A stretch of 63,696 nucleotides of DNA, counting the filler, from Phoronis australis (taxonomy: Eukaryota > Animalia > Phoronida), in assembly GCA_002633005.1 (NCBI GenBank). It is 6 parts of 6 records of this genome, joined end to end, with 100 filler letters (N's around TTAATTAATTAA, not from the genome) between each part and the next. Parts side by side here need not be neighbours in the genome. Positions count along the whole stretch, not along the records: positions 33,332 to 57,934 come from NMRA01000627.1; 5 more parts are not named here. One strand, given 5' to 3'. Position 1 is the stretch's first letter, and each line of letters begins with the position of its first letter. Shown piece after piece: positions 22,555-54,729 of the stretch. Under the pieces are notes generated by a model. It saw only the letters and a list, made by a program, of their open reading frames with translations, had not been told where the DNA came from and made no database searches. A program made the translations under genes and the position numbers.

Positions 22555-22921
22555 TCATGGCTTGCACCGAGGACACAGATAAATGTCAATCTCACTAGCG
22601 TCATTAGCTGTAATATTAACACACTCCCCGTGAAGCCAATCGTCACACGAATCGCTCTGAATCATGAGACCTCCGTGAACAGGTTTACGACAGATGCAAA
22701 AAACTTCTGGGTCCCCGTCCCCGGTATTGGTGTTAATGCCATTCCCAGCAGAAATAACCCTCTTTAGCCAATCAGGTAACTCAGTATGCTGCGTCGTGCA
22801 CAATTTTATTTTGTCATGATGAATTACCGAAACCGAATTCTTAGCTCTTACCCGATACAATGCTGGAGTCAAGACTTCTATAATAATACCCGGTCCCTTC
22901 CAACTTTTTACATTTTCCTTT
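22555..22921 (-). mobile_element. Gypsy integrase C-terminus (GPY/F motif) fused to a PHD finger; cut by an assembly gap
   Basis: WKGPGIIIEVLTPALYRVRAKNSVSVIHHDKIKLC...LPDWLKR is followed in frame by FCICRKP...MIQSDSCDDWLHGECVNI...YLCPRC* (C4HC3 pattern with one Cys changed to Ser). Confidence 0.75.
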
Positions 22922-31075: not shown

Positions 31076-33649
31076 GTAGGTTTACAGGTTTGTTTAACGC
31101 TAAAGGTGTTAAATGCACCAGCTTTATTCACAGATATAATAGCTCTTCTAACGTCACCGTGTTCTTATCGTTTGTTAGAATTAAAATTGGTTTCGAAAAT
31201 CGCCTGGAATTTCCATCACGGCCGTGCTGCCTTGGCGGCTGAAATTAATCCGCAGCAAATTAACGGGCCTCTTTCGAAACACTTCTTTCCTAGCCTAGAC
31301 ATTATTATTAACCTGAGTACAGTAGCAGGGCTTGGAATTTTCCTCTTTTAAGACGATTTCCTCTTTTTGGTGTCGATTTCCTCTTAATTGATTTCAAGTT
31401 TCCTCCATATCGTCTCCGTTTGTATCATTGTTTTGACCTTGTTCACGCAAAAAACCTTTCTTGCAGCTAAATTGTACAACACAGAAAACATCTCTATCAC
31501 ATAAGCCTGTTAATTTGTAAAACGACACGTCACCTGGTCATTCCAAGCCCTGAATTGTAGTCAACATGAGATCAAAAGTTGGTTTTTATAAGAAGCGCCC
31601 ATTTAAAGCTTAGCGAGCACTTCTACCTATTTGCCAAGAAAATTAACTTACGATTTTCGAATCGCGTATTTTTGTAAAACTTATCCCAGCTTGCTCCTCA
31701 TTCTGATTAAAAGTGACTTTTAAAATTGTAAAGATCGGATCAGGATTGTGTTCTGTAGGCCAAGACAAAATCGAAAAAAGTTGGTATGATGTGTTTCGCT
31801 TGTAAATGCATAACGATGTTTCGCAAAGACTTATTACGTGATCTTGCGTTGTCGCGAGTTTCTTGGGTCTATGGAACGCAGGCTAAGGTTCCGTTCCAAG
31901 AAACTAACTTAATTCCATTTCTGGTCTATTAAGACTTGGTTTTAAATCGTTGACTTAAAAGTAAAAACGTGAAAGTGCTTGTCGATCCATTAAAATAGCT
32001 AAACTAAAGCTGAATTATTCGGATTGACAGACCAGTCATCAGTGTCGGATTAAAGCTTAGGGGCCGCGGGCGGTTTTGTCAGATAGACCTTCAGTTCTTT
32101 AAAAAAAATTAAGCGTATATTGTCTACACGTATTTGAAGTTGGGCACTTTACCACACTTCCAGAAGTTCGGGATAATAGATACTAAATTATTTCAGAGAT
32201 TCAAATTCAAAAAAAGAATTTCAAAAAATGGAAGGCTGTTTGTATTTATGCTCAGGTATTGAAATGATGCCGGTTAGACGGGGCTGCTTGGTTTCCGTAC
32301 TTTAAACTGCGTGTCATATTAAGGGGCCACCATGGTAACAACTGTTACTCTTTTATTGTGTTAAGAAATTATAAAATATCCTTTCATCTTAAGGGTGCCT
32401 GTTCTCGGAGTGAGGTCCGAATGATGAGATCAGCTGCTGTTCTTTTCGTGTTTTTGCGAAAAAAACACATCTCGCTATGTTAATATGTTACGGGGGTTCC
32501 TTTTAGAAGGGGCTACGATAATGAAATCGGTGGTCACTTTTATCCCATGTCTTGTTATCATATTTATTAAGAGGCCCCTGTCCAAGGGTGGTATCCAATG
32601 ATGGAATCAACTCCTGCTGTTTCCCTGTTTTTATGAACTAAGACATACCGTCATGTTAAGGGGGACCACGATGATGGAAGGGATTGTCAACCCTTTCTTG
32701 CATTTTTTGTAATTATAGAATATCCTTTCATGTAAGGAGGCCGCTTTCAACTGCTGCAACAATTTAAATTTCATAAGGGACCCGCTCTCGCAAGGGGGCC
32801 CCAATGATGACGTCATCTGCTGTTGTTTTCCTGTGTATATCTTTATGTTAAGGGGTCCTCCGCTTTGAAGAGTCCACACTGTTTAAACCAGTTGTCTCCT
32901 TTTCTATTTTCTTCCAATTATATGTTGTTACGTATTGAGGAGGGGGCCGAGAGTATTGCCTCCTTTGCCCCCCCCCCTGTAAAACCAGGACTAAAAGTAA
33001 TAAAAATAGGCTGGTTCACGGACTGAACGCTGTATAGAGCATGCGCGCACCCAGGGGAGCGGGGGGGTTCCAACGAGCCCCCCATCTGGCGAATTGGGCA
33101 AAAACGTCCGCCTCTGAGAGACAAAAAGTCCGAGAAAATGAGGCAAAAGTCTGCTTAACATGCGTAAACTCGCAATTCACAGTTGTGCACCCGTTTTTTT
33201 AGTCCGCCCGCTTTTTTTGTTACCAGGAATTNNNNNNNNNNNNNNNNNNNNNNNNNNNNNNNNNNNNNNNNNNNNTTAATTAATTAANNNNNNNNNNNNN
33301 NNNNNNNNNNNNNNNNNNNNNNNNNNNNNNNTGTGACGGGACGTTCGTAACTTTACGCTTATTGTTATTCTTATTTAGTTGCAAATGTTCAGTTATTCTT
33401 ATGCTAATGTCTTTGTTGCGTCTCTGTTCGCCTTTGTTACGGGGGCATGTGGGCGCGACTGTATGTGTCGGGCACTTCGCTAGCGACAGGCTTAGGAGAA
33501 GGGTGTTTCCTTCTTTTGCTTTCATGGAAAGTTGATGTTATCATGTGCAAATTGAACTGAAACGAATGCCTGGTGAGAGAAAATACATATTTTGAGGTTC
33601 AGTGGAGACTTGCTCTGTTACAAATCTCAACCGTACGTTCACAAGCCTA

Positions 33650-34690
33650 TGTAGCTTAGGTTTCACTCCACCAGTTGATCTAACATGGCTACCCTCCGAT
33701 GCAACCCGTTCAGCTTTCAGTGCTGCTAGCGCCCTCTCGTGTTCCATTCTTTCTCTCTCCATCTGCTTTTCGGCTTCCCGGGCTTGCCTCCTCTCCTCAG
33801 CCTCTCGCGCTCTGTCTTCAGCCTCACGAGCTTGCCTTCTTTCCTCAGCCTCAGCTTGTTTTTTTTTTCAACAAACTGTCAGAAGTCGTCACCCTGCAGA
33901 CCAGCATTTCTTGTCCGAGGGGCATTAACTCTCTTAGTTGAGATCTTGTCTCCATAGTGAGTTGCTAATTCCAACAGTCCACTTTATCACACCTTGTTAC
34001 CGTTAGTAAGCTTCTGGCGTGCTCGCCAATTGTCACGTTTTCCCCCGTGTGTGGGTGGGCGCAGGTTGTTACAAACCGGTACTAATAGCTTTCGGTGCGA
34101 CAATTGACTGAAGACCCAGGTTCGAGTTAATCCTTTATTAATCTCAACCGTACGTTCACAAACCTACTCAAACAACACGCCCGAAGTAATATCTGTTCTA
34201 TGCTCCAGCCAGTGCTGCGAAGCCTTGACTTGTGATGCACTTCTGAGACACGTTCAGCAACTGTTACACTGGCTGATTCAATAACCTGCTGTCTCTATAG
34301 CTGGCTCTCTATTGACTATCGCTGTAACTGCTGATTCTCTTCACTGCAACTCAACTGTAATTCTCCTGATTAACTTTCTTGAACTCACTTGATCTTACTA
34401 ATACCAATCCGTGCTTGTGTATTTATAGCCTAATGCTTTGTTCTATAACTTTTCATCAATTCAAGCACATGCCAGAAATTTCTGGAATCAACCCTATCAT
34501 TCTAAAAATATGTACTAGTTTCTAGAATATTCCAGGCTGCATTAATCACTGTCATGCTAGAGTCTTCTAGAAAGTTCCACACTATATTGTAGTAAACAAA
34601 TGACATCATCATTGTAACGACCTCAGTCCTCTAGAAAGTTCCATACTATTCTGCAGTAAACAAATTACATCATCACTGTACTTAACTCAG
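33650..34690 (-). mobile_element. Truncated Gypsy element: 5' LTR (34031 to about 34690), PBS, degenerate gag 5' end
   Basis: The LTR ends ...CGTGACA, followed by PBS TGGCGAGCACGCCAGAAG. From 33955 the minus strand reads METRSQLRELMPLGQEM/GLQGDDF*QFVEKKQAEAEERRQAREAE...MEHERALAALK, an E/R-rich gag-like N-terminus. Confidence 0.7.
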
Positions 34691-35684
34691 GGGTCATGCC
34701 AATCAAACAGAACTACAAAACAAAACCATTCAACTAAAAACAGTGTCAGTCTATATTCTGACATACTTTTATATCACGTGACCGCCACTTGATTCAGTTG
34801 TGTAGTTTTCTACTTGAACATTAATTTCTAAAAGAATCGAAATTGTGATCGATTTCTGTATATAGGCCTATTTGTGTCGGTGCGTTGAAAATTTTGGGTC
34901 TCAAATTATTTGTCTTCAGCGAAATTTTCTTTTCAAAATACTTATTTAAGGTTTTGGCAACAGATAACCCGCTCGCATGTAAAACAAAAGTATTAACCAT
35001 GAAATAAATGTGCATAATTTTTGCTGCGAATTAACATTCGCACTAAAGAGAAATCTAGACAACCGATCCCCCTGGGTGCGCACATGTATTAGCTAATTGA
35101 ATTCCTTTTTAAATGACCATCGAGGTTTGTACAGTGAATATTACCTTTGCTCGGATGTAAAGGAAAGACATGAGAAACTTGCACGGGCATGAACCATGAA
35201 ACAAGTGTGCATAATCTACGATGTAAATTCATGTCTGACTCTGCTATATGTAAATGTGTCGAAAGTGGAGAGACATGAAATGATTGCTAAAGAGAAAAGT
35301 TTGACATCATACATTTGAAGTCGACTGAAGCCAACCCAATCATCTTGCATATTTTTGTTCATCAATGGCTTTAAAAACTGTCGTGAGTAGCAATGAAAAT
35401 TATAGTCGTAAATTCAAACGATATTTTTGGGAAAACTTTCAAGAAGCTTGAAAATTCCCTGGATGTTTGGGGACGCAGTTGGAGATTTTGCGGGAATAAA
35501 ATATTCACCTCCTAAAATTACCAGTGGAATATATAACACAAGTATTATATTCAAGCACGGAAGTTTATTTCAACATAGAAATTTAAATGGTCTTTAATAG
35601 TACATGAATTTCATCAAATGAATGCTTTTCAATACTTAATTGCGTACTTTTTAAGCCATGACGTAGGCGCCGTAGTATTTTGAA

Positions 35685-35776
35685 TTAAAGTTCACAGATG
35701 TAACGTGCTTTGTCGCTGCACCCCTTCCTTTCCATGTTCTGGTTACTGGGATTGAAGACCGCGCAAGGGTTTTCAT
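35685..35776 (-). CDS. Lectin-TLDc gene copy 1, exon C: C-terminal half of a C-type lectin domain
   Basis: Acceptor ctcttttacag|AT (phase 1). Translates (D)ENPCAVFNPSNQNMERKGCSDKARYICEL*, the C..C..YICE ending of a C-type lectin domain. Too short for the ORF track. Confidence 0.8.
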
Positions 35777-36320
35777 CTGTAAAAGAGCCAAAGGTCATGT
35801 GGTATGAGGACCAAAAACAAACGCGACCGACATGTCATTTGTATGCATTACGTAGATATAAACCTTCAGAAATTGACAATCGATCACCACCGCCCATTCC
35901 CCCAATCCCATCATTCATACAACATTGAACTGAAAAACCTCAAATTTAATAGAGAATCAATAATTAATTTATTCGGCCCTAAATAATAAGCAAGCTGAAG
36001 CGCATGATTGTTGTGAATATTCAAGTACACTGGACGTGATTCATAAACGAGAATTTTTTAATTATTTCAATTTACAACGCAGTGGCAATGTAAAGTGACC
36101 TATTTATCAATTTGTGAATTTATTGTGGAACGATTACACTAAAGAGGATACAACTAAAAGTACACACTCAATTCTGTTTATTTAAAAACGCAGCTTCATT
36201 TAAAAAGAACGATACTTCTACAGTTTGTTCGTTACACAGTGTTCGAATTAAATATTCAGCTACAAGGCCGACAATCTATAGGAGTCAAATTTTGAAACGA
36301 GGAAAATAGTAAATTCTTAC

Positions 36321-36857
36321 CAACGACATTCCACACCTCAACGTCGGTCCATTCAGCACTCCTTCCACAGCTGAGTGTGCCTGTGTAGGATTGACGACGG
36401 CAGTAGCCGTCAGAGGGGAAGTAGGCCTACTTGGTGGTGCTGTCATATGAGTGGCTACCAGAGAAGAACGACAGGTCGTGACCCCCGCCAAATGATGGAG
36501 AACAGCTGTACATATCGTACATAGCGTATTGTTTATACCCGCTGTACCGGCTCTACCTGGCTGATGTGCATCCTTGTCTGCACAGCTGAAACACGAATGT
36601 GTTGCTGTCGGGCTTGTAGCTGTTAAAACTTGTCCAGGAGACAGAGGCATAACCACCGAACGTGGTTCCGCTCGTTGAATCTTTCCCAATAGAGATGGTT
36701 GGGCCCTTATTGTTGCATCTGCTGTGAAATACTGAAGGCCTCATACCGTCACGTGTTGCCCGGTACAGGAGCTTGAATGTCTTTCCCGGGAACCATTCTC
36801 TCAGTAAAGCTACGTGGTCTGTAGTCAATAAGTTTGAACTAAGAATGGCTCCCATGC
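36321..36857 (-). pseudogene. Lectin-TLDc gene copy 1, exon B: TLDc domain with two in-frame TAG stops
   Basis: Splice sites ttttag|GC ATG and GTT G|gtaaga; length 537 nt, a multiple of 3. Reads FKLLYRATRDG...FHSRCNNKGPT...FGGYASVSW...FVFQL...FGGGHDL...DVEVW. Stops at 36553-36555 and about 36426-36428. Confidence 0.85.
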
Positions 36858-37246
36858 CTAAAAGTCAAGAGTATCATACAAACAGGGAGTTTCATCCATG
36901 TTTTCAAGGTGACAGCGCAGTTTTGGCTAATGGAATTGTAACATTAAAAATGGCAGAAACCAAAATGTTAGTTTACGATTTTGTCACATGAACAGCAAAA
37001 AATGAGTCACAGTTAATGAAACGTGAAACCTGGGTAGTTTATTCATGAATGAATCCAACATAACAGAATACTGGTAAAAACTACAGACTGTTAACACTTA
37101 CTTGTCTGAAGCTTAAAGTAAGATAGTGCTATCATGTAAGATGATGGGATTTTGAAATAAGCACAACTAAGGATCATGCAACTTATAGAGTGGAATAAAC
37201 TAAATCGCTTCTGAAAATTGACATTTAACCCCACTGACATTAGTAC

Positions 37247-38036
37247 CTTTTCCCGTATCTTTCCCACCAGCCCATATGATGTCGTCTGTTTTCAACGATT
37301 CTTGACCAAGGAGGGATCTTAAGCCATGAGAATCCATTGAAACTAGGTGAGAATTGTCTTCAAGGCATTTTATTTTCGCGGTTTCCCAATCCACTGATGT
37401 GTTGCTCAGTTTAAAACACCAATGTCCAAAGTAACGATATTGACTTGAGCAGTACAATTTGCTTAGAATGCGTTCAAAGGAGATCGATGACATTTCTCGT
37501 TGGCGTATCACTTCCTGTTGTAACTCGGTAGCATTAAATGAAAAGAACTTTCGTAGTTTCGTGTGAGAGCGTTTCACGGTTCTCAAAATCGTTGAATGAA
37601 ATTCCCGATTCTTACGTCCTTCTTCACTGCTTTTGTTTTGCATTCCTTCAAGCTTCGTTTGAAAATGAGTTATGCTTTTTAGAGCAGCCGCCTGAAAAAT
37701 TTGGTCCTTAAGTCTTTCTGCGTTACTACTGTTTCGCATTTCTTCAATCTCTGTTTGAAAGCAACCCAATGCTTTTAGAATGGTCGATTGAAAATCCCGG
37801 TTCTTAAGTTGCTCTTCGTTGCTACTGCTTCGCATTTCTTCATGCTTAGGTTGAAAGTGAGTTATGTTCTTTCGAACAGTCGATTGAAAATCCCGGTTGC
37901 TTTTTTCTTCGTATTCCAGTGAAGAGATGACAGAATCTTCGGCAACAGATCTCTTCGTGGCAGCCGAAGCCGCCTGGAGAGATGCAACTCCATGGCACAG
38001 CACAACGATGACTACCAGGAGATTAGCGTAGAACAT
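37247..38036 (-). CDS. Lectin-TLDc gene copy 1, exon A: signal peptide, 32-aa repeats, N-half of a C-type lectin domain
   Basis: Signal-like MFYANLLVVIVVLCHGVASLQA, then repeats of NRDFQST.LK.ITHFQ, then CSSQYRYFGHWCFKLSNTSVDWETAKIKCLEDNSHLVSM...IIWAGG. Predicted donor AAG|gtacta (phase 1). If unspliced, the ORF stops at 37200. Confidence 0.85.
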
Positions 38037-41000
38037 TTCTGATCATAGATTTATCGACATAGACATGCACAGTTAGACCGTTTTCCAACAACAAATAGCA
38101 ACAAATGTCCTTGTAGAGCGTTTCTCAAGGTTGTGAAATTGACGCAGACATAACGTTTCTTGATAAGGTGAAAGTTTATAATAAAGTGAAATGTTTTTCT
38201 TGTGTTAGAAACACTGAGATTAGATAAGTCCATGAATGTGGTTAATAGTTTATGTGCAAGATACAGCGAAACGCATACTCTTACGTACATGTACGTTGAC
38301 ACGCATACCAACAAACCGCTGAGAGTAATCCCTGATGTTTTGCATAAAAGTCCTCATGTTTTTAAATAAGCGATCTCAGTGTACTGAGAGGGAAAATGTT
38401 TAAAGCGTTCCTACAGTGAATTTTTGCACTTTTTGAGGTTCTAGACCGTGTATGAAATTAACTTTATAGTTTATGGGTATTGAACCTAGTGTTAATTTCA
38501 ACTGTTACGTAATTGATGGAAATTATGAAATTAACCTTACTGTATTATTCACCCAGAACGATATTAGAATTCACGAGGGACTTTTGTTAACTTACAGTGA
38601 CTGGTCGTATTGCATTAGGAGCACCAGCTGCCACCTGGTGGTGTTAAGATGTACTTCCAGTTCAAAGTGGTAAACAGAAGGACCTGTAAACAGATTATTC
38701 GATTGTTTAGTATGACGTTATTTTTGACGCTTTTAACCCAGTCAAATAAAATTAAGATGCTAAAATTTAAAAACTAGAATAATAATGAAGACAGACTTAT
38801 GTATCGTTGTATATTTCTGAGGTCTTGGAAAATTATTATCCCATTAATTATGGACTTGCTCCTTCTCAACTCTTCGGGAGCATACAGTAAGTGCAAGAGT
38901 TGTTGTATCAATCCAAAAACACAATTGTGTTAGCAATTCATGTGTTTCCAAGACCTGCAAAAACTTTGAAAACCTGATGTGACTGAGTAGTTCTATTACT
39001 ATTTGTGGGTCCACGGCTCCTTGATAGCAGCTTATACGTCATCACTAAACACCCGAATAACATGTTGTTGCATGATGAGCATTCTTATTTTATGTCACAT
39101 CATAACGGGGAAACAGAATGCAGTAAAGGTCGCGTATTCCGGTTCAACCAGAACGAGATACGTCATGTCAGATCATCTACCAATGTATTGTATGATGTAC
39201 CACTGAGCGTCTCTGCTGACTAGTGAAATATGCAACTTGCGCCTACAATGTAGTTTTTGTTTGTTTTACTCCAATTAACGACTCACATGCTCTGTTGTGC
39301 CCTGCTTTCTCGAGCCAATCGCCCTCATTGTCGGGTTAGACCGGGTTAGACCCTATAACATTTGTACTCTAGCTCATTGTTCATGTCGAACTCGTTTTCA
39401 AGATCTTGCCTGAACTTTTCAAACGCAACGATTGGTGACAAGTAAAAGACACCAAGTCTAAAGACTTGCGTATATCATAAGCATACTTCTCTATCGTGCC
39501 ATCTATTTTAAGAGCATCCGTCAAAACAGTGCGCCAGAATGTACAAGAGCCACGCCATCTATGGAATCGCTTGATGATCATTTAATTGCAATAAAGCAAA
39601 TCAGTCAGAGTTGTCAATATGTATCTCTACACTAGACTAATGCCAAGTTTATGCTGCTGTGAAGCCTGTGTTCTGTCCATGAAACAAGCTAATAATTCGT
39701 AACTGTAACTGCTAACTCTCAGTTCTAGGAAAGCCCTGAAATCACGTCCAGTTTAACAAAAGAAATTCTTAGACCTAGTTCTAAAACTGTAAGTTCACAA
39801 AGTAAAAAATTGTAACTTAAGGCGAGTGGTTTGAATTTTTGAAAACCGGTTATCGTCTGTTTTACAGTTGCCGGTTGGCGCTGGGTTTGGGTAACTCGAG
39901 GGCTGTGGGGAAAACATCCGTTCAACCGCGAATTGTAAAATCCAGTTAGTTACGCAATGAGGCTAATCAAACACTTAACTTCTGGTGGTGTCACTAAAAC
40001 AAACAATTTAATTCAGTAAAAGTGAATACTTTCAGACCTCTGTAGAACTTTATTTTGACATTAAACCAACCTGCCAGTAATTAGATCACATGACATCGTT
40101 TTAGGAAAAGATAGAACAAATAGAAGGCACATCCACAGCACACGGTCTGATCTCCATTCTTTGGTTATCAGAGTTGAAGGTGAGACAGGAATCTGAAAGT
40201 TAGTTTATGTAAAACAGTAACCTCTAATGGTATAATATTATTTTACAGTTATTGCAATTACTCAAATCATTCACCAACTTAACACATGTATTTTGGCTTT
40301 TTACATCGCATTTCTTCAGCTAAAATGACCTTAACGTAAATTTTTACGAGACAATCAATTTCAAAACCCATATCATTCGCAAAATCACTAGTTGTAGTCG
40401 ACAATATATCAATACGTTTTTGCCAGTGCCTCATTGCCATGAAGCCATCGCTAATGCGGTAATTACTCTACTCTACTCACTGGAACTTACATCTGCTTCC
40501 TTATCAAACCTCTTGGGAACAGATCGAACGACCAAGTACAAGGTGCCGTGAAAAGGGCCTCCTGACAATCAGTGTGAGGATTGTGCATATCTACTGGTGA
40601 AGTTCAACATGCCTTGAAACTGGTGGAGTTTTTAATGAAAGGAAGAGTGCCGGTACTAATAAGAACAATGATGACAATGAGAATTATGATAATAGTGTGG
40701 TATAACACAAGAATGCACACAAAATGTCATCGTCATCTTTAATTGAGAAACAAACGGTTCTTTGTTGGTAAAACACGATCACGTAAAACACGTGCTGAGA
40801 TGATGGAAATTTCCAACACGTCCATAATTCACTAGAGGCAGTAAAAGTGTCTAAATTTGGCTAACACCCTACCTCAAAAATGGTGGATTTGATTGAGATG
40901 AAATTTTCGGATATAGTACTTGATGTAGTGATTTCCAAAGGTGTGTTCAATGTTATCTTAAATGGTTTCATTTTTCACATGAACTGCCAAAAATGGAGTC

Positions 41001-41195
41001 ACTTAAAACCTAAGTAGTTTATTCATCAACAGAGCGAACATAACCGAAAATACCTCAGGTAAAAACAACATACAGCTAACACTTACTTAATATAGTGTAT
41101 ACAGTTAATATTTGTTCTAAGATGATGGGATTCTGAAATACGCACAAGCGTTAACTTGGTGATCATAAATCGTATAGAGTGAAAGATTTCTTTAC

Positions 41196-41408
41196 CTAAG
41201 ATGCTCCTGAAAAACACTTGCATTTCTTCAAGATCATGGTTTTTAAAACAGTCGATTGGAAAATCCGGTTGCTTTTTTTATTCTCTTTCAGTAAAGAGAT
41301 GACAGATTCTTCAAAAACAGATGTCTTCGCCGCAGCCGACGTAGCTTGGAGAGATGCGACTTCATGACACAGCCAAACGATGACTACTAGGAGATTAGAG
41401 TTGAACAT
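41196..41408 (-). pseudogene. Lectin-TLDc family copy 2, internally deleted exon A relic
   Basis: MFNSNLLVVIVWLCHEVASLQATSAAAKTSVFEESVISLLKENKKSNRIFQSTVLKT matches copies 1 and 3, then homology jumps to intron-like sequence. The flank at 41000-41190 resembles 37030-37200. Confidence 0.75.
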
Positions 41409-41536
41409 TTTTGCTGATGAGTTTATCGACACGAACTCGTACAACTTGACCGTTTCACAACACTAACTGGGAACAAATGTCCTCAACCTCAAATGTAAAA
41501 CATCACTAGAGCTTGTCAAAATGACAGGAACCTATT

Positions 41537-41570
41537 ATCAATCAATCAATCAATCAATATCATTTATTGT
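41537..41570 (-). repeat. (ATTG)n tail preceded by AATAAA, possible retroelement 3' end
   Basis: Minus strand aataaatgatattgattgattgattgattgat. Confidence 0.4.
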
Positions 41571-42086
41571 ACATCGTGGGCATTGCCTACACACATACAT
41601 CAATACACAAATGAATATTCATAGTGTTTCCAAGGACAGTAGTTCTTCTCTTTAAGCAATGGGGACTCAAGAATACCATATCCACCAGCTTGTCGTCAAG
41701 AACAAGTCACTATCTTGAGGTTGAGAACCGGCCACTGCCAGCTGCTCTCCCACTTGCATCGCCAGAAAATATCTCACACAAGACAAGGAGATGTTTCACG
41801 GCCTCATACTTGCTATTTACAGCGTGCATTTCATTCTTCACTACCATGAACCACTTCCTAAGCATTTCGGACTCTCGAGTAAGTAAAAAAACGATATACC
41901 CCCTTTACTCGCTGCTGCTTAGTTCGGACAAGCGGGAACGATGCACCGCAACATAGCGGCATTCACTCTGCATATGAACCACTGACGTCGCTAGCTTCGT
42001 TTCTCACCTTCCTCACAGGCTAACGCGACACCTCTTGGCAAGGTAAGGTCGATGTCAATATAGACCGATTAAGACTGCAAAAAAGA

Positions 42087-43875
42087 CTAATTTAATCGGG
42101 TGGCATTCTCCTTTAAAAGGTCCACAGCAAGAGCTTCAACGTGGCCTCTCCTTGACGTTATGGCCTTGAAATTGAAAGCCGTTATCCGATGCCTTCTTAA
42201 CTGATAACACTCTTGGCATTTATTTTGCGCTCTGGAGTCTTTTTCATACTGTTGTGATTCAATTATAGACGTTTCTTTCGATTGGTAGATTACTTGCTGA
42301 TCAACAGGAAGTGAATGCGGATCAAAATGTAATGTTAACACAGGCAAACTGAAGGCAGGCGGGGTCTCTAGTTCAAACAAAACACAAACTTGATCAGGCT
42401 TTTCCTGATAAGACAGCATAGACCCCTTTGGTGCTTGACCAAATTTTTTGTTATCTACCAAGGTCATGTCTTCCATTAGACTCGACAGGTGCACCCACTG
42501 TGGTGGTGCAGATTGTGCATTAGATGCAGGCAAAAGTTGCTGAACTGTGTGCTGAACATCACTGAGTGGCACTGGCATTGGGTTCCACACGTTTGCTCGA
42601 GCTCCATCTTCATGACGGCCTTTCTTGGGGAGTGGATCTACAGCAGATGGGATAACTGGTTTTATAACCGTCACATCCGTCACAGGGCGGGTAGCAAAAC
42701 CATGTGTTCGTGGGGGACGTGCCAATGTTGAGGGGTAGATGTGGATGAAACAATTTCAGGCACCTTGTTGATCTGGAGTTGTTGAAAGTTGCTCAGTTGG
42801 TACAAGAGTGCCACTTTATGTTGACAGAATCCTTTTCCAGCTTTGCACGTACAAGTGTGTGATGTTATCTCCCACTCGTTGGTGAAACCAATCTGAAAAG
42901 CGAAAATCAAAAATTATGTTACAATAGCTTGTTGGTAAGGGGGATAATGTAAATAATTTGTTACGATGTTACAGGTTAAGTTACTACGGCTAATAGACTT
43001 TTTATAGCCTAGGAGCTCTGAAAATCTTACTAGTAATCTGGCATTTACCACAAATTGTACAAACACTTCATAAATAGAGCATTAGCAAGACCATGAAAAA
43101 CTTTCCTTCAACACTCCAGTAAATTACACATACTAGTTTTAGAATTAAAGCAGCAGTATACTAACAAGGTAAAGGATAACACGTGTAATACTTATTCGAA
43201 GAGAATGAGGTGTTCCAGACTTCTTTTGACTTTGAAAACATTTTGCTCGAACACTGTGATGAGACAGAGCAAGATCACTTGAGTACCTGTTAAACCTAAT
43301 TGTGGCCCATTGATAGGCCTGCCTCAATAACTCCCACACCAAGGTGATAATGTGAACTCTTGGCCTGACCTTGTAACTGAGAACCAGAGGGTCAATCTAG
43401 TGGAAATCTTAAGTCTGACTCATGAATCGTTTGCCTTAGGGAGGCTCAGGCACTGTCACGCTGACGCTGACACTTGCTGAGAGCCCGAGTCTCTCCTAAG
43501 ACCAGTCAATAGAATCGGTAGGCCCAAGCGACGAATCTCACAAGAATGGCGAGTAAACAAATCGATTTTTGTAAATTACGTTATCATTGGGTCAATGAAG
43601 AAAATAACTACGGTTTCAAATAATATACAACTATTTTTCAAACTTTGAAAGACGATGCAAATAACGAAATGGGCTCAACTACTCTTGCTTAATTTAATAG
43701 TCGTCGCACGAACGAGCAACACACACATCGAAATTACGCTTACCTCCGATATCGTGGGCATACGAATCATAATAGAAACGATATCCTCTTTGAAGGGAAC
43801 TTGTGCGTATTGGTATGTTTTTGGAGATCGATTCAACATCAGACAACTTGATTTTTGGTAACGTTGATAAGATGC
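42087..43875 (-). pseudogene. Transposon-associated SWIM zinc finger plus YqaJ/lambda-exonuclease-like gene, degenerate and multi-exon
   Basis: Segments: about 43744-43875 (LSTLPKIKLSDV...LQRGYRFYYDSYAHDI, donor gtaag), about 43196-43286 (VRAKCFQSQKKSGTPHSL), and 42087-42892. The last carries HTCTCKAGKGFCQHKVALLY (SWIM), STSTPQHWH, and SRAQNKCQECYQLRRHRITAFNF (YqaJ N-terminus), with a frameshift. Confidence 0.7.
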
Positions 43876-44424
43876 TGCGTGGTTGGTAAGTAGGTTTGGC
43901 AGGGTGGTACCATTGTAGGTACAGGTGTGAAGACGTCCTTGCGTAAGAACCGGGGTTCATTTGTGTCATTTAGGGGGTTACACTTGTCTTGGTAAGAAGT
44001 AATGGTTTGTAGTTTGGGCCATAAGTCACTAGGAAGAAACATCGACGAGCAGCTGACATAATTTTTTAAATTTGAAACTAAAGGGAAAAGGCTTTGACAT
44101 CAAAAGTTTTTAAACTCATTAAAATTTCTGTTGAAATGGTGAAGAACCACTTTGAATAATGTAGTTCAGCGTTCTTTGGGCGTTCTTTGCCACTTTAATT
44201 TAATATGCTAAAAATGTCGCGTAACAATTTTATATCACGTAACCGCAGCTAGATGGAAGTGTGACGTTTTTATCATGAACATAAATTTCTGATTGATTTA
44301 TTGTTTGAGTTACATATGTTTGTGTCAGTGATTTTGGAAATTTTGTGTCTTCGGCAAATTATCTATCCTCAAACAGCAGACGTATCACCTAATTAAATTC
44401 CTTTTTAAATGACCATCAAGGTTT

Positions 44425-45700
44425 GTACAGTCAATATAACCGTTGCTCTAATGTAAAACAAAGACATGAAAAACTTGCACCCGCGTGGACCATGATATAA
44501 TAAGTGTGCCTAATTTACGATGCGAATCCATTCATGCACAAAAGCAAAATCGATGTCTCAAACTGCTATATGTAAATGTGTCGAAAATGGAGAGGCATGA
44601 CATGATTGTTAAAGCGGAAATTGCAAGGTCCAAACCAATCTGAACAACAATATGGTCTAAATTCTAGTTTATAATTATCATTGCTTTACTCTTAACATTA
44701 ACTGAATTGTACGCCGCTATACAAAGTTATTTACATATTTAGTGCCTTGGTGTTGTAACGCCATCGTTGTAACGGAGAATGGAAACGGCGCCATTTTCGT
44801 TCGTTACACATCTGTGACGTGAGGTTGGGGAACACAAAGGAAGCAATCTGTGTCCAAGTGAGTACAGTAGCGTAGATGAGGAATACTTTGAACGATACAG
44901 GGACGGACAGGTGGACTTTTCAGATGATCCCGACCTTTCGGACGAGGAGGTGGAGGTGACAGATCCCAGAGGAACAATATGTGTCCACAGCTTTTCTGTA
45001 GTGGAGCCGTTCTCCCTCGATCCCTTTCACGGCCCTTTCTCTGGTCGCCGAAGACTCACTCCCNGTACAGTCAATATAACCGTTGCTCTAATGTAAAACA
45101 AAGACATGAAAAACTTGCACCCGCGTGGACCATGATATAAGTGTGCCTAATTTACGATGCGAATCCATTCATGCACAAAAGCAAAATCGATGTCTCAAAC
45201 TGCTATATGTGAATGTGTCGAAAATGGAGAGGCATGAAATGATTGTTAAAGAGGAAATTGCAAGGTCCAAACCAATCTGAACAACAATATGGTCTAAATT
45301 CTAGTTTATAATTAGCATTGCTATACTCTTAACATTAACTGAATTGTACGCCGCTATACAAAGTTATTTACATATTTAGTGCCTTGGTGTTGTAACGCCA
45401 TCGTTGTAACGGAGAATAGAAACGGCGCCATTTTCGTTCGTTACACATCTGTGACGTGTGTTGGGGAACACAAAGGAAGCAATCTGTGTCCAAGTGAGTA
45501 CAGCAGCGTAGATGAGGAATATTTTGAACGATACAGGGACGGACAGGTGGACTTTTCAGATGATCCCGACCTTTCGGACGGGGAGGTGGAGGTGACAGAT
45601 CCCAGAGGAACAATATGTGTTCACAGCTTTTCTGTAGTGGAGCCGTTGTCCCTCGATCCCTTTCACGGCCCTTTCTCTGGTCGCCGAAGACTCACTCCCA
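44425..45700. repeat. About 640-bp tandem duplication joined by a single N
   Basis: 44425-45063 and 45065-45700 are nearly identical. Both contain the host flank and the Kolobok left end (44613 and 45250). Confidence 0.85.
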
Positions 45701-45950
45701 CCGGGTTCGTCCTGTGAACGTCAACAGGCTGAAGGTGCGCAGGAGTTGCGATTATATGTTAGTGATTCGTAAGAATATTATCAATATGTATACTACAACC
45801 GCGAATTATAACTTGGTCTTTTTTAATTCAAAAGTAGTCCCAGGCGCCCATGTCCCCATTGGTGAATCGTGTTTCAGCCGTGGATAAAACTGGGATTTTT
45901 TGGCATTATAGCAAATCACTCAAAAACTGTTAGGTTTCTGATTATTTGTA

Positions 45951-46150
45951 GACTGTGTGGCTCAGTGGTTTGAGCTAGTGAGACTCAGGTTCGAATCCAT
46001 TCTTTCACTGGCATGCAACTGAGCATTGAACAAAATTGGCTCTTACTTCTCCGAGACTGAGCGGGGTGTTACTAGTGAGTGAATAAATGTGTGCAAGGGA
46101 ATGAATGAGAACCACTTTGGAATAATCGACTGTGAATTGTAAAGAAGGGG
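45951..46150 (+). mobile_element. tRNA-derived SINE-like insertion
   Basis: A-box TGGCTCAGTGG (45958-45968) and B-box GGTTCGAATCC (45988-45998), with no complete tRNA cloverleaf. Confidence 0.55.
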
Positions 46151-46971
46151 ATGAAAGAATTGCAATTTTATAATTTAGACTTTCTCACCTTGGTGCTGGG
46201 GGAGGGCATAATTCTATAGGTTATAGAACAAGTCATTTCATTTTCGTAATCAAGTCAGCTCGGACCTATATCAATCTACACATGTGTTCCAAAACAGTTT
46301 TATTTTGTACGGCGATGCTTGAAATGGAAACAACCATTTCATGTCGATGTACATTGACCCAATGTTGCCATTATTTATCAATGAAATATGGTACGAGTCG
46401 ACTTGTGTAGGAACCGCCTGGTAAAGTTTCTATAGAGTAAAGAGAGTATACCATTGGATTGGTGATTGCCCATATAGCATATCAAGAAGTTTTAATGTAT
46501 ACTGTAATATTTAAAATGAGGGTGGCAACACTGCATTTCAAGTTGGTTTGCCCCATTGTTATTGTATAGTTTGATTAATGATATGTGGGTGATGATAGGA
46601 TTCAGATTGGGAGAACAGGTCTCACGACTACATACAAAACAGTCCCCTCCATCAATGAATCAGGGCAACTACCTTTTGTCTTAGGGTCAGCTAAAAAATC
46701 AAACAACTAATGTCCATTACTATATCACCCGGGCATGATCTACCACTGCCTTGGGTGTAGCACTATTCATTTGTATGAAAAGTTAATATCTTTACTATAT
46801 ATGATCAATTTGTACAAAAAAAAAATAGGTAGTAATGTTCCAACCAATTTTTCTGTAAACTGAAGTCGTATGCAGACCCCTCAAATTTGGTAGAGGCACT
46901 CTTGGTAAATTTTTCAATTCGAAATTTTGATGTTAACTGAAATAATGTATTATTGTTGACACACATTGCAG

Positions 46972-47375
46972 GTGCACCTGGGGCAACTGTCAGACAACCT
47001 CAGTTGTTGAAGAAAGAGTATGTTGCCAAGAGGTTGACAAGGTTGTTGCAAAACTGGATGAAGAAATGAAGCGTGGCAACTAACACAGAAGAAAAAATGT
47101 ATTGTGGAGCATGGGGGTTTAAACCTGTATACATCAATCGTAGTGTTTTGGAAACTGCATACTGCATGGTTGCAGTACAAAAGCCAATATCCTGATGGCT
47201 ATGACAGACCCTTGGATGAAAGGATTTGACACGTGGACAGTTCCAAAGATGGGTACACGGTCACTTGGGACGAACAGTCCGTGTTGTCATTCCAGCATGC
47301 GCAGTAGCCTGGATCAGAGCTTTCTACCCTCCGCCAGGAAATGAGGAAGACTTTGAGTTCCAAGGATTTTCTTAA
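46972..47375 (+). pseudogene. P2X7 C-terminal ballast (Zn-binding)-like, KolX-like exon of the Kolobok
   Basis: After cattgcag| it reads CTWGNCQTTSVVEERVCCQEV...CIVEHGGFKPVYINRSVLETAY...QFQRWVHGHLGRTVRVVIPACAVAWIRAFYPPPGNEEDFEFQGFS*, with frameshifts and stops. An acidic upstream segment lies at about 45490-45735. Confidence 0.8.
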
Positions 47376-49445
47376 AAGTTTCACCCATTTATAGATATCA
47401 ACAGTTGTCTTAGCTCTGGAATGCCAACTCCTGCACATGACCTATGTATTCTGTTATAAAAACGTGTGACTCGGGGACTAGTTTTATGTAATTCAAACGA
47501 GTTGCAAAAAGTTGTAGTGACAAATTCCATAGAAAGATCAAACATCGTAATAAACGAATGCAATCGCAGTGCAACCTCAGCGGCATGAAATTGAATTTGA
47601 CATTCCATGAATAGACTTCTGTGGTTTCAGAATGGTAAATAACTGACACAGCGAGCAGCATTTATTGATGCTCATCAATCTGGTTACTTATGATAACATG
47701 GTCATGACAAGTGTAATTTAACTAGGACTACATTATAAACCTCTAAATTCAACATCAGTTTAACTTATGGTTTACCTAGGTAAACAGAGGAATTTGTCTC
47801 ATTGGAGCCCAGTTTGTGTGCTTGAAGCGAACACATTGAACAGTATGGCTGTTACATAAAAAAATAAAAGTTTTGAATCTGGTCCATAGTCTGAAGTCGA
47901 GACTGAATCTTCTGCCCTCTTCATATACAGTAGAACTATCTAAATTGGTAGCACTTCAGTGGGAACTTTAGAAGGGGTAGCATTAATTCCGCAGTAACGC
48001 CTCCAAATAACTCTAACTTTGATGAAATATCTCAATCTCACTGGATACAACTTAGCGAGTTTTACTGTAATTCAATGAGAAATCAAATAACACGACACAG
48101 CAACCACTGAATCTCAACCCAAAAGCTCCAGTATGCAATAGCTTTAGATGTCTATGACATGGTGTGAAAACACAAAAAGTATAAACATGAGTAGGAATTG
48201 GGAAATCTGGAGGGAGTGCTTATACCATTCACTCAAAAATTCCCAAGACAGTGTTCGAATTCTGTGCAAGTGATTATTCTGTGTACAATTTAGATGAGAT
48301 TGTCGCACGAAAACACTGACGACCCAAACAGGTACCTTTTCACCCCCACTTAAGAAAGTCTTCCTTTACCGACCCACTGTATGGGACAGCAACAGTTTAG
48401 TGCAAATCAAATATACTTAAAAAAAGCTGTGCCGCAATATTTATAGTCATTGTATTGAAGGACCATTGAAATGTTTCCAGGTGCGGATCCAGGATTTTGA
48501 GTTAGGGGTCCAGGACACGGTATTAGCCAGGATTTTGCCCGTCAGACATTCGCACCCCCAAACAGTCAAATGGAATCTGGGAGAATTTTAGGGGGGCATG
48601 GCCCCCCTCTAAATCTGCCACTAGTTTCAATATAAGAACATAGTATATCACTGGGTTTATCTATACAAATGGGACAGCCAAGTACCACACGCAAAAGCTT
48701 TTCACAATTTCCACTATTGGTACTATAAACACTCTGGCATTGCTATCTGTACCACTATCAAAATTTTGATCTAAAACATTGGTAGTGACTGTTAAATATG
48801 TGACGGAAAGAAATTCCAGTGCTGTCCATTGACAAAGCACCAAGTCTGAATGTATCTGTGCCACGGCATCCTCCTTGGACACATCTGGAGCATCAGCAGT
48901 CGGCATTGGAGGGGCATCAATTTCCAAGCGAATTTCAAGATCTCCAGCTTCTCTTTTGTTCCGAACTAATTGGAAAGTGTTCTCCTTTCATTCACATACT
49001 CTGAAAAGCACAACAGCGGCAATTCAAAAGTAAAAAAAACATTTTGAATCTAGAGTTGTCCATGATTAAAGTAAAACACGATGATATCTAATTGCAAGTT
49101 TTCGCCTTCTTTTATAACCTTTAAGCAAATGCCAAAACTAGATTTTAAACCTGTTTTTTTTTAACCAGACTACTTTAGTAATCAAAACCTTGGAATTGAG
49201 TTACCGTCCAGTTTTACTTTATTCATAGTCTGCATTCTTTTCAAAATACATGCATCTTTTGAGATCAGCTTTATTTGTTGTGGCTTTTAGTTTTACTGAT
49301 CCATTTATAACTAAATCTTTCACGGAAAAACAACAGATTTTAAACACTTGAGAACTACGGTGATTGTAAAAAAAAGATTGTTATTGTTCAGCCACTGCGA
49401 AAGCGTCATGAATTATTAGACGTCAAAATTCTCAAGAAAACTTAC

Positions 49446-49693
49446 CTTTTTATAAAACCAGCTTCAACCTTCATGATGTGTTTGTCGTCAAAGCAGCCGT
49501 CCTCAAAATGGTCGGAGCATATTTTGGCTCCGACCGATGGCTGACTCGACAGTCATTTTCAAAAGACGAGCAGAGCACACGAAAACCTGCCATAACGCAG
49601 CAAGATGCTTGTCTTTTTAGAATTTAAATGGGCTCATGCCTTCCACCTGGGTGGTGTTAAAATAGTTTGCACACACACACACCGATGCACCAT
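49446..49693 (-). pseudogene. THAP domain, first exon of the Kolobok transposase, degenerate
   Basis: MVHRCVCANYFN...SPFKF*KDKHLAALW...AKICSDHFEDGCF...FIK|gtaag shows the C2CH THAP signature with lesions. Confidence 0.75.
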
Positions 49694-50346
49694 AGCTAAA
49701 ACACGCCAAGGTTGAACGGTCTTTGTGTTTCGTGTACTGTGATATAATAGCAGTGAACTGCATTGTGGGATATGATCTGGTTTGTGTTCCCCAACACCAT
49801 GTCACGGTGTCAAAGGTCAACTTTTCGCGCATTTTCTTATCTTCGCTTTTTTTTTAAATGACTAAAGATACAATAATACGATGATTTGAATAAAATACAT
49901 CCAAATAGCAATACCTTGAAGATATTATTGCAATTTAACATACTTGGACCTTGCAAATTACGCTTTAAAGATACAAGTTTGACATGCAATTGAGATTGAC
50001 TGAAGTCAACCGAAGCATCGTGTATATTTTTGCTCCTCAATGGCTTTGAAAAACTGTCTTGAGTAGCAATGAAAATTATAGTTGTAAATTCAAACAATAT
50101 CTTTTGGAAAAAAATTCAAGAAGCTTGAAAATTCATTGGATGTTTTTGGGACGCAGTTGGAGACTTTGAGGGAATAAAATATTCACCTCCTAAAATTTAC
50201 CAGTGGAATATATAACACAAGTATTATATTCAAGCACGGCCGTTTATTTCAACATTGTCTTTAATAGTACGTAAATTTCATCAATGCTTTTCAATACATA
50301 ATTGAGTACTTTTTAAGCCATGACGTAGACGCCGTACCATTTTGAA

Positions 50347-50438
50347 TTAAAGTTCACATATGTAACGTGCTTTGTCGCTGCACCCCTTGCTTTCCACGTT
50401 CTGGTTACTGGGATTGAAGACCGTGCAAGGGTTTCCGT
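50347..50438 (-). CDS. Lectin-TLDc gene copy 3, exon C: C-terminal half of a C-type lectin domain
   Basis: Acceptor ctcttttacag|AC. Translates (D)GNPCTVFNPSNQNVESKGCSDKARYICEL*; intact. Confidence 0.8.
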
Positions 50439-51256
50439 CTGTAAAAGAGCCAAAGGTCACGTGGTATGAGTAATTCAGTAACATTTAAATGCTTGAGTTG
50501 CCGATTACTTACCTGAAAACTTCTCTTGATGTTTGGTGAAAGAAATATATATATTCATTAGAACAAAATTTTAGTTCGAGAGTAGTTCTTTTGTTTTGCG
50601 TCAACCAATATTTCGAGTATGGTGGAGTATTTGTGGTTATTCGCCTGAGCGACCCTAGCGGAAGTTTTATTCAGACATTCACTAGACTTACATACGACGG
50701 ATTTCGGGAGGCAATGTCCTACCTCTTTGGAAGGACCAAAAACAAACGCGACCGACATGTCATTTGTATGCGTTACGCAAACATAAACCTTCAGAAATTG
50801 TCATTCGCTCACCCCCGCCCCTTCCCCCAACCCCATTATTCATACAACTTTAAACTGCAAAATATCAAGTTTAATACAGAATATGTAATTAATTTTACTG
50901 GTCTTAAAACTAAGCATGCTGAAGCGCATGATCGTTGTGTATGTTGATGTACACTGGACGTGATTCATAAATAGGACTTTTTCATTATATCAATTTACAA
51001 TGCTGTGGAAATGTATAGTTAGCTATTTAGCAATTTGTGATAAATGCAGAGCAAATTTCTTGTCGAACGACTACACTAAAAAGAATACAACTAAAAGTAC
51101 ATACTCAATTCTGTTTATTTAAAAACGCAGCTTTATTTTAAAAGAACGATACTACTACAGTTTGTTTGTTACACAGTGTTCGAATTAAATATTCAGCTAC
51201 AGGGCCGACAATCTATAGCAGTCAAACTTTGAAACGAGGAAAAAGTAAATTCTTAC

Positions 51257-51787
51257 CAACAACATTCCACACCTCAACATCGGTCCATTTAACACTCCTT
51301 CCACAGCTGAGTGTGCCCTTGTAGGAGGCATGATGGCAGTAACCGTTAGACGGGAAGTACTCGTTGGTGCTGTCATACGAGTAGCTATCACTGAAGAACA
51401 TCAGGTCATGACCCCCGCCAAATGCTGGACCCTTGTGGTACAAATCGGACATAGCCATGGTTTGATAATTGCTGTCTATGCTGTATCTGGCTGATGTGCA
51501 TCCTTGTCTGCACAGCCGAAACACGAAAGCGTTGCTGTCCTTCTTGTAGTTGTTGACACTTGTCCAGGAGACAGAGGCATAACCACCGAACGTGGTTCCG
51601 CTCGTTGAATCTTTCCCAATAGAGATGGTTGGGCCCTTATTGTTGCATCTGCTGTGAAACACTGAAGCGCTCATAGCATCACGTGATGCCCTGTACAGGA
51701 GCTTGAATGTCTTTCCTGGGAACCATTTTTCCAGCAAAGCTACGTGGTCTGTAGTCAATAGGTTTGAACTAGCTATGGTTCCCATGT
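51257..51787 (-). CDS. Lectin-TLDc gene copy 3, exon B: intact TLDc domain (IFI44/OXR1-type)
   Basis: Splice sites ttttag|AC ATG and GTT G|gtaaga; length 531 nt. Reads FKLLYRASRDA...FHSRCNNKGPTI...TFGGYASVSW...DSNAFVFRL...GPAFGGGHDL...DVEVWNVV. Confidence 0.9.
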
Positions 51788-52190
51788 CTAAAATTCAAAC
51801 GTATCATAGGTGTATCATCCGTGCTTCCAAGGTGACACAGTAATTTTCGGTATTGCAAATAAAGCGAAACAAGAAAAATGGTAGAACCCGAAATATCAGT
51901 TTATACCATTTTTGTCCCAGGAACATGTTAAAAAGTAGCCGAAATGAAACGCGAAAACTGAGGAGTTTATTCCTCAACGATGCTGGTAAAAATTACAGAC
52001 AGTTAACAGTTCCTTGACTGAATGAAGCGTAAAATAATATAGTGTATACATCTAACCTGTGTTGTAAGATGATAAGATTTTGAAATAAGCACAAGTGTTC
52101 ACTTGGTGGTCATGCATTATGAAGAGCCGAAGATTTCTTTTACTAAAATGCTTCTGAAAATTTGTCATTTACTGCCTTTGGTATTAATAC

Positions 52191-52786
52191 CTTTTTCCGA
52201 ATCTTTTCCAACAGCCCATACGGTGTCCCCTTTTTTCAGCGATTCTTGACCAAGGAAGGATTTCAAACGATGAGAGTCCAAAGGAACTACGTGAGAATTG
52301 TCTTCAAGGCATTTCCTTTTTGCGGTTCCCAATCCACTGAAACGTTGCTCAGTTTGAAACAAGAATGTCCAAAGTAACGATATTGACTTGGGCAGTATAG
52401 TTTACTTAGAATGCGCTCGGATGAGGTTGATGACATTTGTCGTTGACGAATCACCTCCTGTAGTACCCCGGTAGCATTAAGTGAAAAGCTATTGCGTAAC
52501 TTTTGTGAAAGCTATTCATGGTTCTTAGAACCTTTGACTGAAAGTCTCGGTTCTTAAGTCGTTCCTCGCCGCTTTTGTTTAGCATTTCTTCAAGTTCCGA
52601 TTGAAAGTGAGTTATGGTTTTTAGAACAGTCGATTGGAAAATCCGGTTGCTTTTTTCTTCCTCTTTCAATAAAGAGATTACGGATTGTTCGAGAACAGAT
52701 CTCTTCTCGGCAGCCGAAGTCGCATGTAGACACGTGGCTTCGTGACACAGCACTACGATGACTATTACGAGATTAACAGTGAACAT
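52191..52786 (-). pseudogene. Lectin-TLDc gene copy 3, exon A, with two apparent -1 frameshifts
   Basis: MFTVNLVIVIVVLCHEATCLHA..., then a shifted frame LRNSFSLNATGVLQEVIRQRQMS...YCPSQYRYFGHSCFKLSNVSVDWE, then KCLEDNSHVVPL...TVWAVGKDSEK G|gtatta. One A is missing near 52502 and another near 52327. Confidence 0.75.
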
Positions 52787-53309
52787 TTCTACTCATGGGT
52801 TTATCGACAAGCACAGCTAGGCAGTTTCACAACACCAACGGGCAACAAATGTCCTCAACTGGAGATTGTCAAAGTGATAAGAACCTACGTGAACCATCCT
52901 TTTATAATGTGAACGTTTGTGATAAGAAAAATATATCCCTCAAGGTGATATTTTTCTTCAGGCCCATAGCCAGGGGGTTTAGGGATTCGATCGAACTCCC
53001 AACGCTGAAAAGGTCCAGCCCCAGCCCATCTGTTAGAGATAGGATATAGATGGACAACAACAAGAACAGCAACAGCAACAACAAAATTATTGCAGTTACT
53101 GGTACTAATAACTACAGTTATAATTAAGTTTGAAGAATTTGCTTCTGATTGAAAGCGCTTCGCATACTCATCGGGCCCTACATGGCCCCAGGGCCCAATT
53201 TCGCCCGAGTGGTGTTTTGCCTCTTGCAGACATTAGAGGAGGCTTGACATCACTCATTGGCACTGAACGTAAGTGGTTGCTACACAGTTATCGTCGATAT
53301 TATCGGTCG

Positions 53310-54729
53310 CCAAATGGGTGAATGTTACGCCGTCAAATTATGTGTTATTACGTTAATTCTTGTTAGAGACGTTAAGTAATTATTTGCGGGGTAAAGTAAT
53401 TATTTGCAGAGTAAAGTAATTATTTGCGGAGTAAAGTAATTATTTAAGACTTAAAGAATTAATAAATTACGGCGTAAAGTAAGTATTTGCGGCGCTTAAA
53501 GTTTCTTTACGCCGCAAATAATTACTTTGTCCCATACGCGTTGAATCTGTCGAGGGAAATACGGCCATGTAATAATGTTTTCCGTATTCACCTCCCGCAC
53601 TTCCTCAACAGCGACCTCTGACACTGAAGGTTCAAAAAGTAGGTCAATGTCGAAATCGACGTCATTAGCCCGGCGGTTAGATCATTAAATTTTCGGAAAA
53701 TAGCTTAAAGTAATACAATTGTAGCAGTGTAAATACCACTCAGCATGCAATCAGGTCTCAATTGTAACATCTGGAACAGGACTGTTAATTATATGACAGT
53801 CTTGTCTCAGTTTTCAATTTCTATATATTATATCGTCAGCAACTCAGGCACCGATTCCTCGCCAATATCAAACATTGTTGTCACTGGCCATGACAGCACC
53901 CGATACTATCGGCGACAGTATTACACGAGCAGCAACGACGACCGTGCTACAGAATCCGTAGCCAGCCAGATAGCGGTATGAACACACTGTCGTATATTTA
54001 GTATACAGCTTTGTACCAAAGCTACAGAATCCGTAGAAATGCGACAACGTACCTGCAACAACGCTGCAACAGGCATATTCGCCGGAGCTGTCGTCAACGG
54101 TGACACTTTTAAGTTCTTCGTAAAAACAGACGACGTGTAGGCTACGCGCTCCGGTCAATGTCCTAGTTTCATGAATGACTGCAGCCACCCGATGAGGATT
54201 TTACAATGTTATAAATATCCTTGTCATTTATTTATTTTCGAAATGCGCAATAACTGTCGTTTTTACACTCTTATCAGTTTCAAGTAATAAACTGCGACAT
54301 TTAAAACTGTTTTCTTTTACTATAGTAAATTAGCAACACAACGCGCACGTACAAACAAAACAGGTTGTGATTCCCCACGTAAACAGTCAGGGTGAAGTAT
54401 TTATAAAATGCCGAAAGAAAACAAAAAAACAACGAATTCGATGCGTATCCGATAAATACAAAACGCACCTCGAGTGGCGTATATGAAATAATATCCCACT
54501 CGACATTATTCCGCGGAATAATGTCTCGTGCGATATTATTTCATGTACGCCAGTCTCGGCACGTTTTGTGTATTGATGCCGCACATAATTTACGCTGTTG
54601 ATAATTACTTTACGCCTTAAATAATTACTTTAAGTCGTAAATAACTACTTTACGCTGCAATTAATTACGCCTCCAACAAGAATTATAGTACACACGTAAT
54701 TTAACGGCGTAAAGTTCACCCGTTTGGCC
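53310..54729. mobile_element. Non-autonomous TIR element with 21-bp subterminal tandem repeats
   Basis: gccaaatgggtgaa.gttacgccgtcaaatta is inverted relative to taatttaacggcgtaaagttcacccgtttggc. Arrays of GTAAAGTAATTATTTGCGG at 53372-53530 are inverted at 54585-54670. Confidence 0.7.

Follow-up and report, generated by a model that had tools for sequence, protein, structure and literature searches.

The proteins in which the TLDc domain has been described, among them OXR1/OXR2 (4ACJ), NCOA7 (7OBP), mEAK-7 (7U8O), TBC1D24/Skywalker (6R82) and the yeast proteins Oxr1p and Rtc5p, act inside the cell on the V-ATPase, and in the passages of PMC8608904 that we drew on, binding to this enzyme is the best-documented TLDc activity. 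Our understanding of TLDc biochemistry thus rests on a few intracellular proteins, and whether the domain has a ligand or activity of its own is still debated. C-type lectin-like domains (CTLDs) have been described from a different angle: according to sections of PMC7618208, the Ca2+ sites lie in their long loop, which is variable and has been proposed to evolve independently, while an EPN/QPD motif in that loop and a WND motif on strand beta4 are the marks of a Ca2+-dependent carbohydrate-recognition domain (CRD). Here, we describe a gene family of the phoronid Phoronis australis (assembly GCA_002633005.1) in which a whole TLDc domain lies where a CTLD would have its long loop. Three copies of the gene, all on the minus strand, are found in a window of 63,696 nt (the whole stretch of DNA analysed, six parts joined end to end), in the part that comes from NMRA01000627.1. 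This nested TLDc-in-CTLD architecture is real and expressed, apparently undescribed, and built by a known process.

Copies 1 and 3 have the full layout of three exons, A, B and C. A preliminary description of the locus had given the coordinates of these six exons, GT-AG ends at all four introns and exon B lengths of 537 and 531 nt, and all of these were reproduced. In copy 1, exon A (37247..38036, minus strand) is an open frame of 790 nt that ends in phase 1 and encodes a predicted signal peptide, a neck of four 32-residue repeats (37521..37904, minus strand, with a 96-nt self-match) and the N-terminal half of a CTLD up to the strand equivalent to WIGL (37247..37460, minus strand, with Cys196, Cys207 and Cys224). 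Exon B (36321..36857, minus strand) is a 1-1 symmetric exon encoding the TLDc domain, with two in-frame TAG codons in the assembly, and exon C (35685..35776, minus strand) supplies the C-terminal strands of the CTLD with three Cys, followed by a stop. Copy 3 consists of exon A (52191..52786, minus strand), which has 596 nt and two -1 frameshifts in the assembly and encodes a predicted signal peptide, two repeats and the CTLD N-half; exon B (51257..51787, minus strand), an intact TLDc domain on a 1-1 symmetric exon of 531 nt; and exon C (50347..50438, minus strand) with the C-terminal CTLD strands. Copy 2 (41235..41408, minus strand), found by tblastn, is a 58-codon fragment from the 5' part of exon A that holds the predicted signal peptide and the start of the first repeat, without exon B or C; RNA read depth is zero in the bin 41010-41660 that contains it. 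An in-frame stop lies directly upstream of the copy 1 ATG. In copies 1 and 3 the start is also preceded, at a distance of 10 nt, by an ATG in another frame, which opens an upstream reading frame of 7 codons overlapping the start codon (38046-38023 and 52796-52773, minus strand); copy 2 is without it.

The A-B-C architecture is transcribed and spliced in vivo. From one study, 18-19% of each of three raw stranded RNA runs was mapped to positions 34500-54000, together with one contig set of a second study, presumed to be of RNA. Across the three runs the copy 3 A-B joint was found in 225, 124 and 2 reads and its B-C joint in 205, 127 and 2 reads as well as in one contig of the second study, while the copy 1 A-B joint was found in 30, 46 and 1 reads. 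These joints lie at exactly the sites that had been predicted, rather than pointing to an exon A that reads through beside a separate TLDc transcript. Nearly all depth over the exons comes from a single mate orientation, which is what minus-strand RNA should give. Among the 15 of 29 joints listed, with a 10% share filter, the exact copy 1 B-C joint is absent; in its place there are variant reads (4, and 9 and 12, by hand reading of the junction table) that run in frame from a diverged end of exon B into an exon C resembling that of copy 1 but shorter by one residue. The frame is kept in all three variant B-C junction forms listed, again as read by hand. An A-C joint, which would mark the skipping of exon B, is also absent among these 15 joints; the term symmetric exon therefore stands, whereas the proposal that exon B is an alternatively skipped cassette is unsupported.

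The claim that the assembled exons splice in frame could not be upheld, and both full copies, earlier taken as intact, are disrupted as assembled. Exon B of copy 1 contains in-frame TAG codons at 36555-36553 and 36429-36427; reading through them was considered, and no sign of a changed genetic code was seen. Compared with copy 1, exon A of copy 3 is missing single bases near 52503 and 52327, because of which its length is 596 nt (2 mod 3), and the assembled reading frame ends after 111 codons. In RNA, which comes from other samples, an additional base at 52327 is present in 159 of 241 and 118 of 175 reads. At 52471/52513, 153 and 99 reads skip over 41 nt, with ends unlike those of an intron. 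Together the two bring exon A to 556 nt, so that phase 1 is restored: the majority indels taken together reopen the copy 3 frame, their joint presence on one molecule being presumed. As to copy 1, among the 40 of 926 RNA-versus-assembly differences that were seen, 22 fall in its exons and change 21 codons (7 synonymously, 14 nonsynonymously, none to a stop). Several of them equal copy 3 residues, and the expressed copy 1-like gene is therefore a different allele or a paralogue.

Exon B encodes a complete TLDc domain, as had been proposed. The copy 3 exon matches the Pfam family TLD (PF07534) over positions 3-169 of 170 (E 1.1e-23; 84.5 bits against a cut-off of 24.5), and the core residues that are invariant in TLDc are retained. 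A model built from a 58-sequence alignment (pLDDT 87, against 31 for a single-sequence version) takes the TLDc fold: only six of 48,161 chains exceeded Z 5 in a fold search, all of them TLDc, with Foldseek concordant, and the best match of this predicted model was OXR2 (Z 17.2 over 158 residues). The TLDc proteins named at the outset share the whole fold with the model, at Z 12-17 and 17-22% identity. Fibrinogen-like domains (FBG; ficolins, angiopoietins) made up 15 of the 31 Foldseek rows below TLDc, at E values of 0.6-1.4 and TM of at most 0.29, which is not significant, and they are absent from the top 50 of a wide fold search with the TLDc model. Unlike OXR1- and NCOA7-type proteins, the TLDc here follows a predicted signal peptide, is enclosed in another domain and carries four extra Cys. 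These occupy TLDc positions 92, 96, 150 and 161 in both copies 1 and 3; none of 56 homologues has Cys at the same columns, and 1-3 of the 56 have one within a column of them. They would form additional disulfides. Total Cys count was also tried as an extracellular marker and did not separate 32 putatively extracellular TLDc domains (mean 2.8) from 229 others (mean 3.2), so only position-specific Cys were used.

The flanking exons are less clear-cut. An N-terminal signal peptide is predicted in all three copies from a hydrophobic core judged by hydropathy only (KD9 3.9 at residues 6-14 of copy 1; 3.3-4.0 across the three copies), and no later 19-residue segment exceeds a hydropathy of 0.61 in the three pieces tested. 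The repeats, which start at residues 45, 77, 109 and 141 in copy 1, matched no Pfam family over cut-off and may form a helical, oligomerising neck or stalk. With the last 71 residues of exon A, 58 of the best 60 of 69 PDB matches were chains that we take, by their names, to be CTLD proteins; they include CLEC1B, DC-SIGN and LY75, the best single-CTLD match having an E value of 0.002. The match to DC-SIGN spans residues 7-71, through the WIGL strand (beta2), with which IWAGG and VWAVG in the copies are aligned, and the same half falls to Lectin_C clusters in Atlas at 0.93-0.94. Exon C matches positions 80-106 of 107 of Pfam Lectin_C at E 0.03-0.04 and 15.5 bits, under the cut-off of 22.6, as well as the C-terminal strands of CD94 (E up to 0.07). 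With the halves scanned separately, Pfam confirmed part of what had been anticipated of it: exon B was recovered as TLD, while the CTLD N-half gave no hit and exon C stayed under the cut-off. Taken together, the end of exon A and exon C look like two complementary halves of one CTLD, matched weakly but consistently. The proposed arrangement, a CTLD broken after the WIGL-equivalent strand by a full TLDc on a 1-1 exon and spliced A-B-C, is supported. The closest CTLD parallels are soluble proteins with a neck and a CTLD, and CTLDs that work independently of Ca2+, for which CLEC-2/CLEC1B, CD94, the type II antifreeze proteins and DC-SIGN served as templates; the likeness to them lies in the predicted signal peptide, the repeat neck, the long-form CTLD Cys and the WIGL-like strand; unlike in these proteins, the long loop is here a foreign domain of 177-179 residues. 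The Ca2+ and sugar loop is missing, as had been noted, and neither EPN/QPD nor WND occurs in the exon translations; therefore this CTLD is not a Ca2+-dependent lectin.

We looked for relatives of the nested form. Against longer proteins, the TLDc exon gave 9 matches among 332 candidates, none with Lectin_C, and exon A matched none of 933 candidates. A representative library held 8,217 TLDc matches, the best 150 of which, as listed, are at most 56% identical; neither CTLD half matched any of 158 TLDc proteins, and Lectin_C was found in none of 37 TLDc proteins scanned with Pfam. Elsewhere in the window, the C-terminal part of a Toll-like receptor with LRR and TIR domains (23022-24578, plus strand, cut by an N gap) has a best hit of only 35% identity; the lineage is therefore poorly represented, and such blanks say little about the range of the architecture. 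The preliminary description had implied that an extracellular TLDc was unique. The nested pairing with a lectin was indeed not found elsewhere in these searches, but apparently extracellular settings for TLDc do exist in other proteins: beside EGF, LamG, FN3, MACPF or PKD modules in the large proteins P0012, P0025, P0029, P0036, P0061 and P0150, which have tandem TLDc and of which several have hydrophobic N-termini, and as tandem TLDc with a signal peptide in P0018, P0037 and P0132. Judging from these sequences, extracellular TLDc would be wider than the P. australis locus, with TLDc-plus-module proteins as a broader class, and the likeness to the present copies lies in this apparently extracellular setting. 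No publication that deals with secreted TLDc or pairs TLDc with a CTLD was found in a search that covered few subscription journals and included passages of PMC8329711, and a 2026 review (PMC13570293) uses none of the words secreted, extracellular or lectin in its main text, as far as this was available to us.

We favor, with a probability of roughly 60%, the reading that the gene product is secreted and necked, with a CTLD core that presents the TLDc as a binding head for surface or immune recognition. The protein would be exported by way of its signal peptide, and the parts encoded by exons A and C would come together as one CTLD, held by the canonical disulfides, that serves as a scaffold. 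The TLDc head, rather than a sugar site, would bind the target, its variable second half would be the ligand face, and the role would be one in surface or immune recognition. A signal peptide followed by a coiled coil and a CRD is a known layout of secretory lectins, according to parts of PMC8878817. It is more tentative, and in our judgment somewhat short of an even chance, that TLDc is an extracellular ligand-binding module that has taken over the ligand loop of a lectin, the CTLD being the scaffold of a diversifying head in a multivalent secreted recognition protein. As to origin, a phase 1-1 TLDc exon would have replaced the long-loop exon at the intron after WIGL; the gene would then have been duplicated in tandem, the copies would have exchanged sequence, and some copies or alleles would have been lost. 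Fish CTLD genes are known to have an intron downstream of WIGL (in passages of PMC514892), and shuffled extracellular modules belong to class 1-1 (likewise in passages of PMC8001218). A symmetric phase 1-1 exon and an insert within the usual 50-200 residues are what the present case shares with class 1-1 exon shuffling and with domain insertion (Patthy; PMC13114784, seen in excerpts). That insertion survey has no entry for TLD or lectin in the portions consulted of its main text and three supplement files, and the literature searched yielded no case of TLDc shuffled into a CTLD as a 1-1 module.

Between copies 1 and 3, the ratio of nonsynonymous to synonymous change (dN/dS) is 0.55 over 366 codons. 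By segment it is 0.21-0.58 in exon A; within TLDc, the first half has 0.51 and the second half 1.1; exon C has 5 differences, with a dN/dS near 1. The TLDc differences are clustered in one part of the domain, with 19 in 15 codons (p 0.008). A run of 34 codons is identical between the copies (0 of 5000 shuffles), so gene conversion is likely and the ratios are rough.

Several points weigh against a secreted recognition protein built in this way. Neither full copy is intact as assembled, for which either assembly error or null alleles may be responsible. The two indels that restore the copy 3 frame were each seen by their own read counts and not on one molecule, and, with 40 of 926 differences seen, the expressed allele may carry further stops. 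The CTLD matches are weak: the N-half was missed by Pfam, exon C was under the cut-off, and a 45-residue copy 3 piece had no PDB match. Where dN/dS approaches 1, in exon C and the second half of TLDc, relaxed selection fits as well as diversifying selection. Finally, the homologue searches, in a poorly sampled lineage, found no relative with the same architecture.

The same secreted architecture could also serve another end: as part of mucus, a gland secretion or matrix, TLDc would have a protective (redox) or structural role, and all that the lectin remnant would do is stabilize it. We consider this unlikely, even though it has something to recommend it. TLDc proteins have been linked to protection from oxidative stress, in the parts of the literature that we used. 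Expression is sample-specific, since copy 3 reaches about 184 and 132 reads per million in two of the RNA runs but 2.4 in the other, a level 55-80-fold lower, and this suits a gland or epithelium equally well. Any catalytic activity is putative, however, and the tandem copies, variant transcripts, clustered TLDc differences and broken copies resemble a recognition family with fast turnover, of which tandem, variant and broken copies are the usual pattern.

It is less probable still that the family is decaying and that its transcripts come mostly from pseudogenes, the fusion having been functional once or never. All three copies are disrupted or truncated in the assembly, about a third of the copy 3 reads are without the listed base at 52327, and dN/dS approaches 1 in places, all of which could be read as decay. 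The RNA speaks otherwise: the majority indels sum to an open frame, the three variant B-C junction forms listed are all in frame, and no stop arises in the 21 codons changed by the fixed RNA differences seen for copy 1. High expression and the overall dN/dS of 0.55 point the same way.

If the protein is a secreted TLDc fusion, its lectin halves might no longer fold together, or might pair between subunits as domain-swapped oligomers. Loop-swapped CTLD dimers do occur in snake-venom CTLD proteins, and the low CTLD scores would suit such a loss or rearrangement of the fold. We regard this as quite improbable, since one piece stops and the other starts at the borders of the long loop and since six Cys, three from exon A and three from exon C, are kept in both copies in the long-form pattern; none of the six is among the RNA changes listed.

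In the TLDc domain itself, copy 3 carries Ala in place of a Gly that 53 of 56 homologues share and that copy 1 keeps. We take this position, by motif only and without alignment, to be that of the glycine on which V-ATPase binding by Ncoa7 depends. Passages of PMC8608904 report that an Ncoa7 mutant with Ala in place of that glycine no longer bound the enzyme. The reading that the N-terminal hydrophobic stretch is an uncleaved anchor, or that the protein remains in the secretory pathway, with TLDc still working in its best-documented role on the V-ATPase, is very remote: the known TLDc contacts are with the V1 part, whereas TLDc would here be luminal, and the Ala of copy 3, if not copy 1, argues against it as well. 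The V1 part of the V-ATPase lies on the cytosolic side.

Other features were seen around the locus. Between copies 2 and 3, a low-level GT-AG joint at 49446/49000 (minus strand) is found in 2, 6 and 6 reads; the piece upstream of it has what we take to be a THAP-like motif, perhaps a transposon relic, and the open reading frame downstream of it has no Pfam match. A 639-bp tandem duplication at 44425-45699, 97.5% identical and joined at a single N, is maybe an assembly artefact. An open frame of 435 codons (29772-31076, plus strand) adjoins an N gap and is without a Pfam hit. Retroelement relics lie at 19841-20287 (plus strand), with RNase H, and at 22558-22920 (minus strand), with a C-terminal piece of integrase followed by a PHD finger.

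The locus offers a clean example of a shuffled exon placed inside a domain, and one that automated annotation would overlook, because each lectin half scores under threshold. An expressed, probably secreted TLDc that sits in the ligand loop of a lectin and is stabilized by disulfides is also a small and testable probe of TLDc binding. If TLDc is indeed an extracellular ligand-binding module, the locus would provide the first handle on a TLDc ligand beyond the V-ATPase, and would link to it the unstudied signal-peptide TLDc proteins of other eukaryotes.

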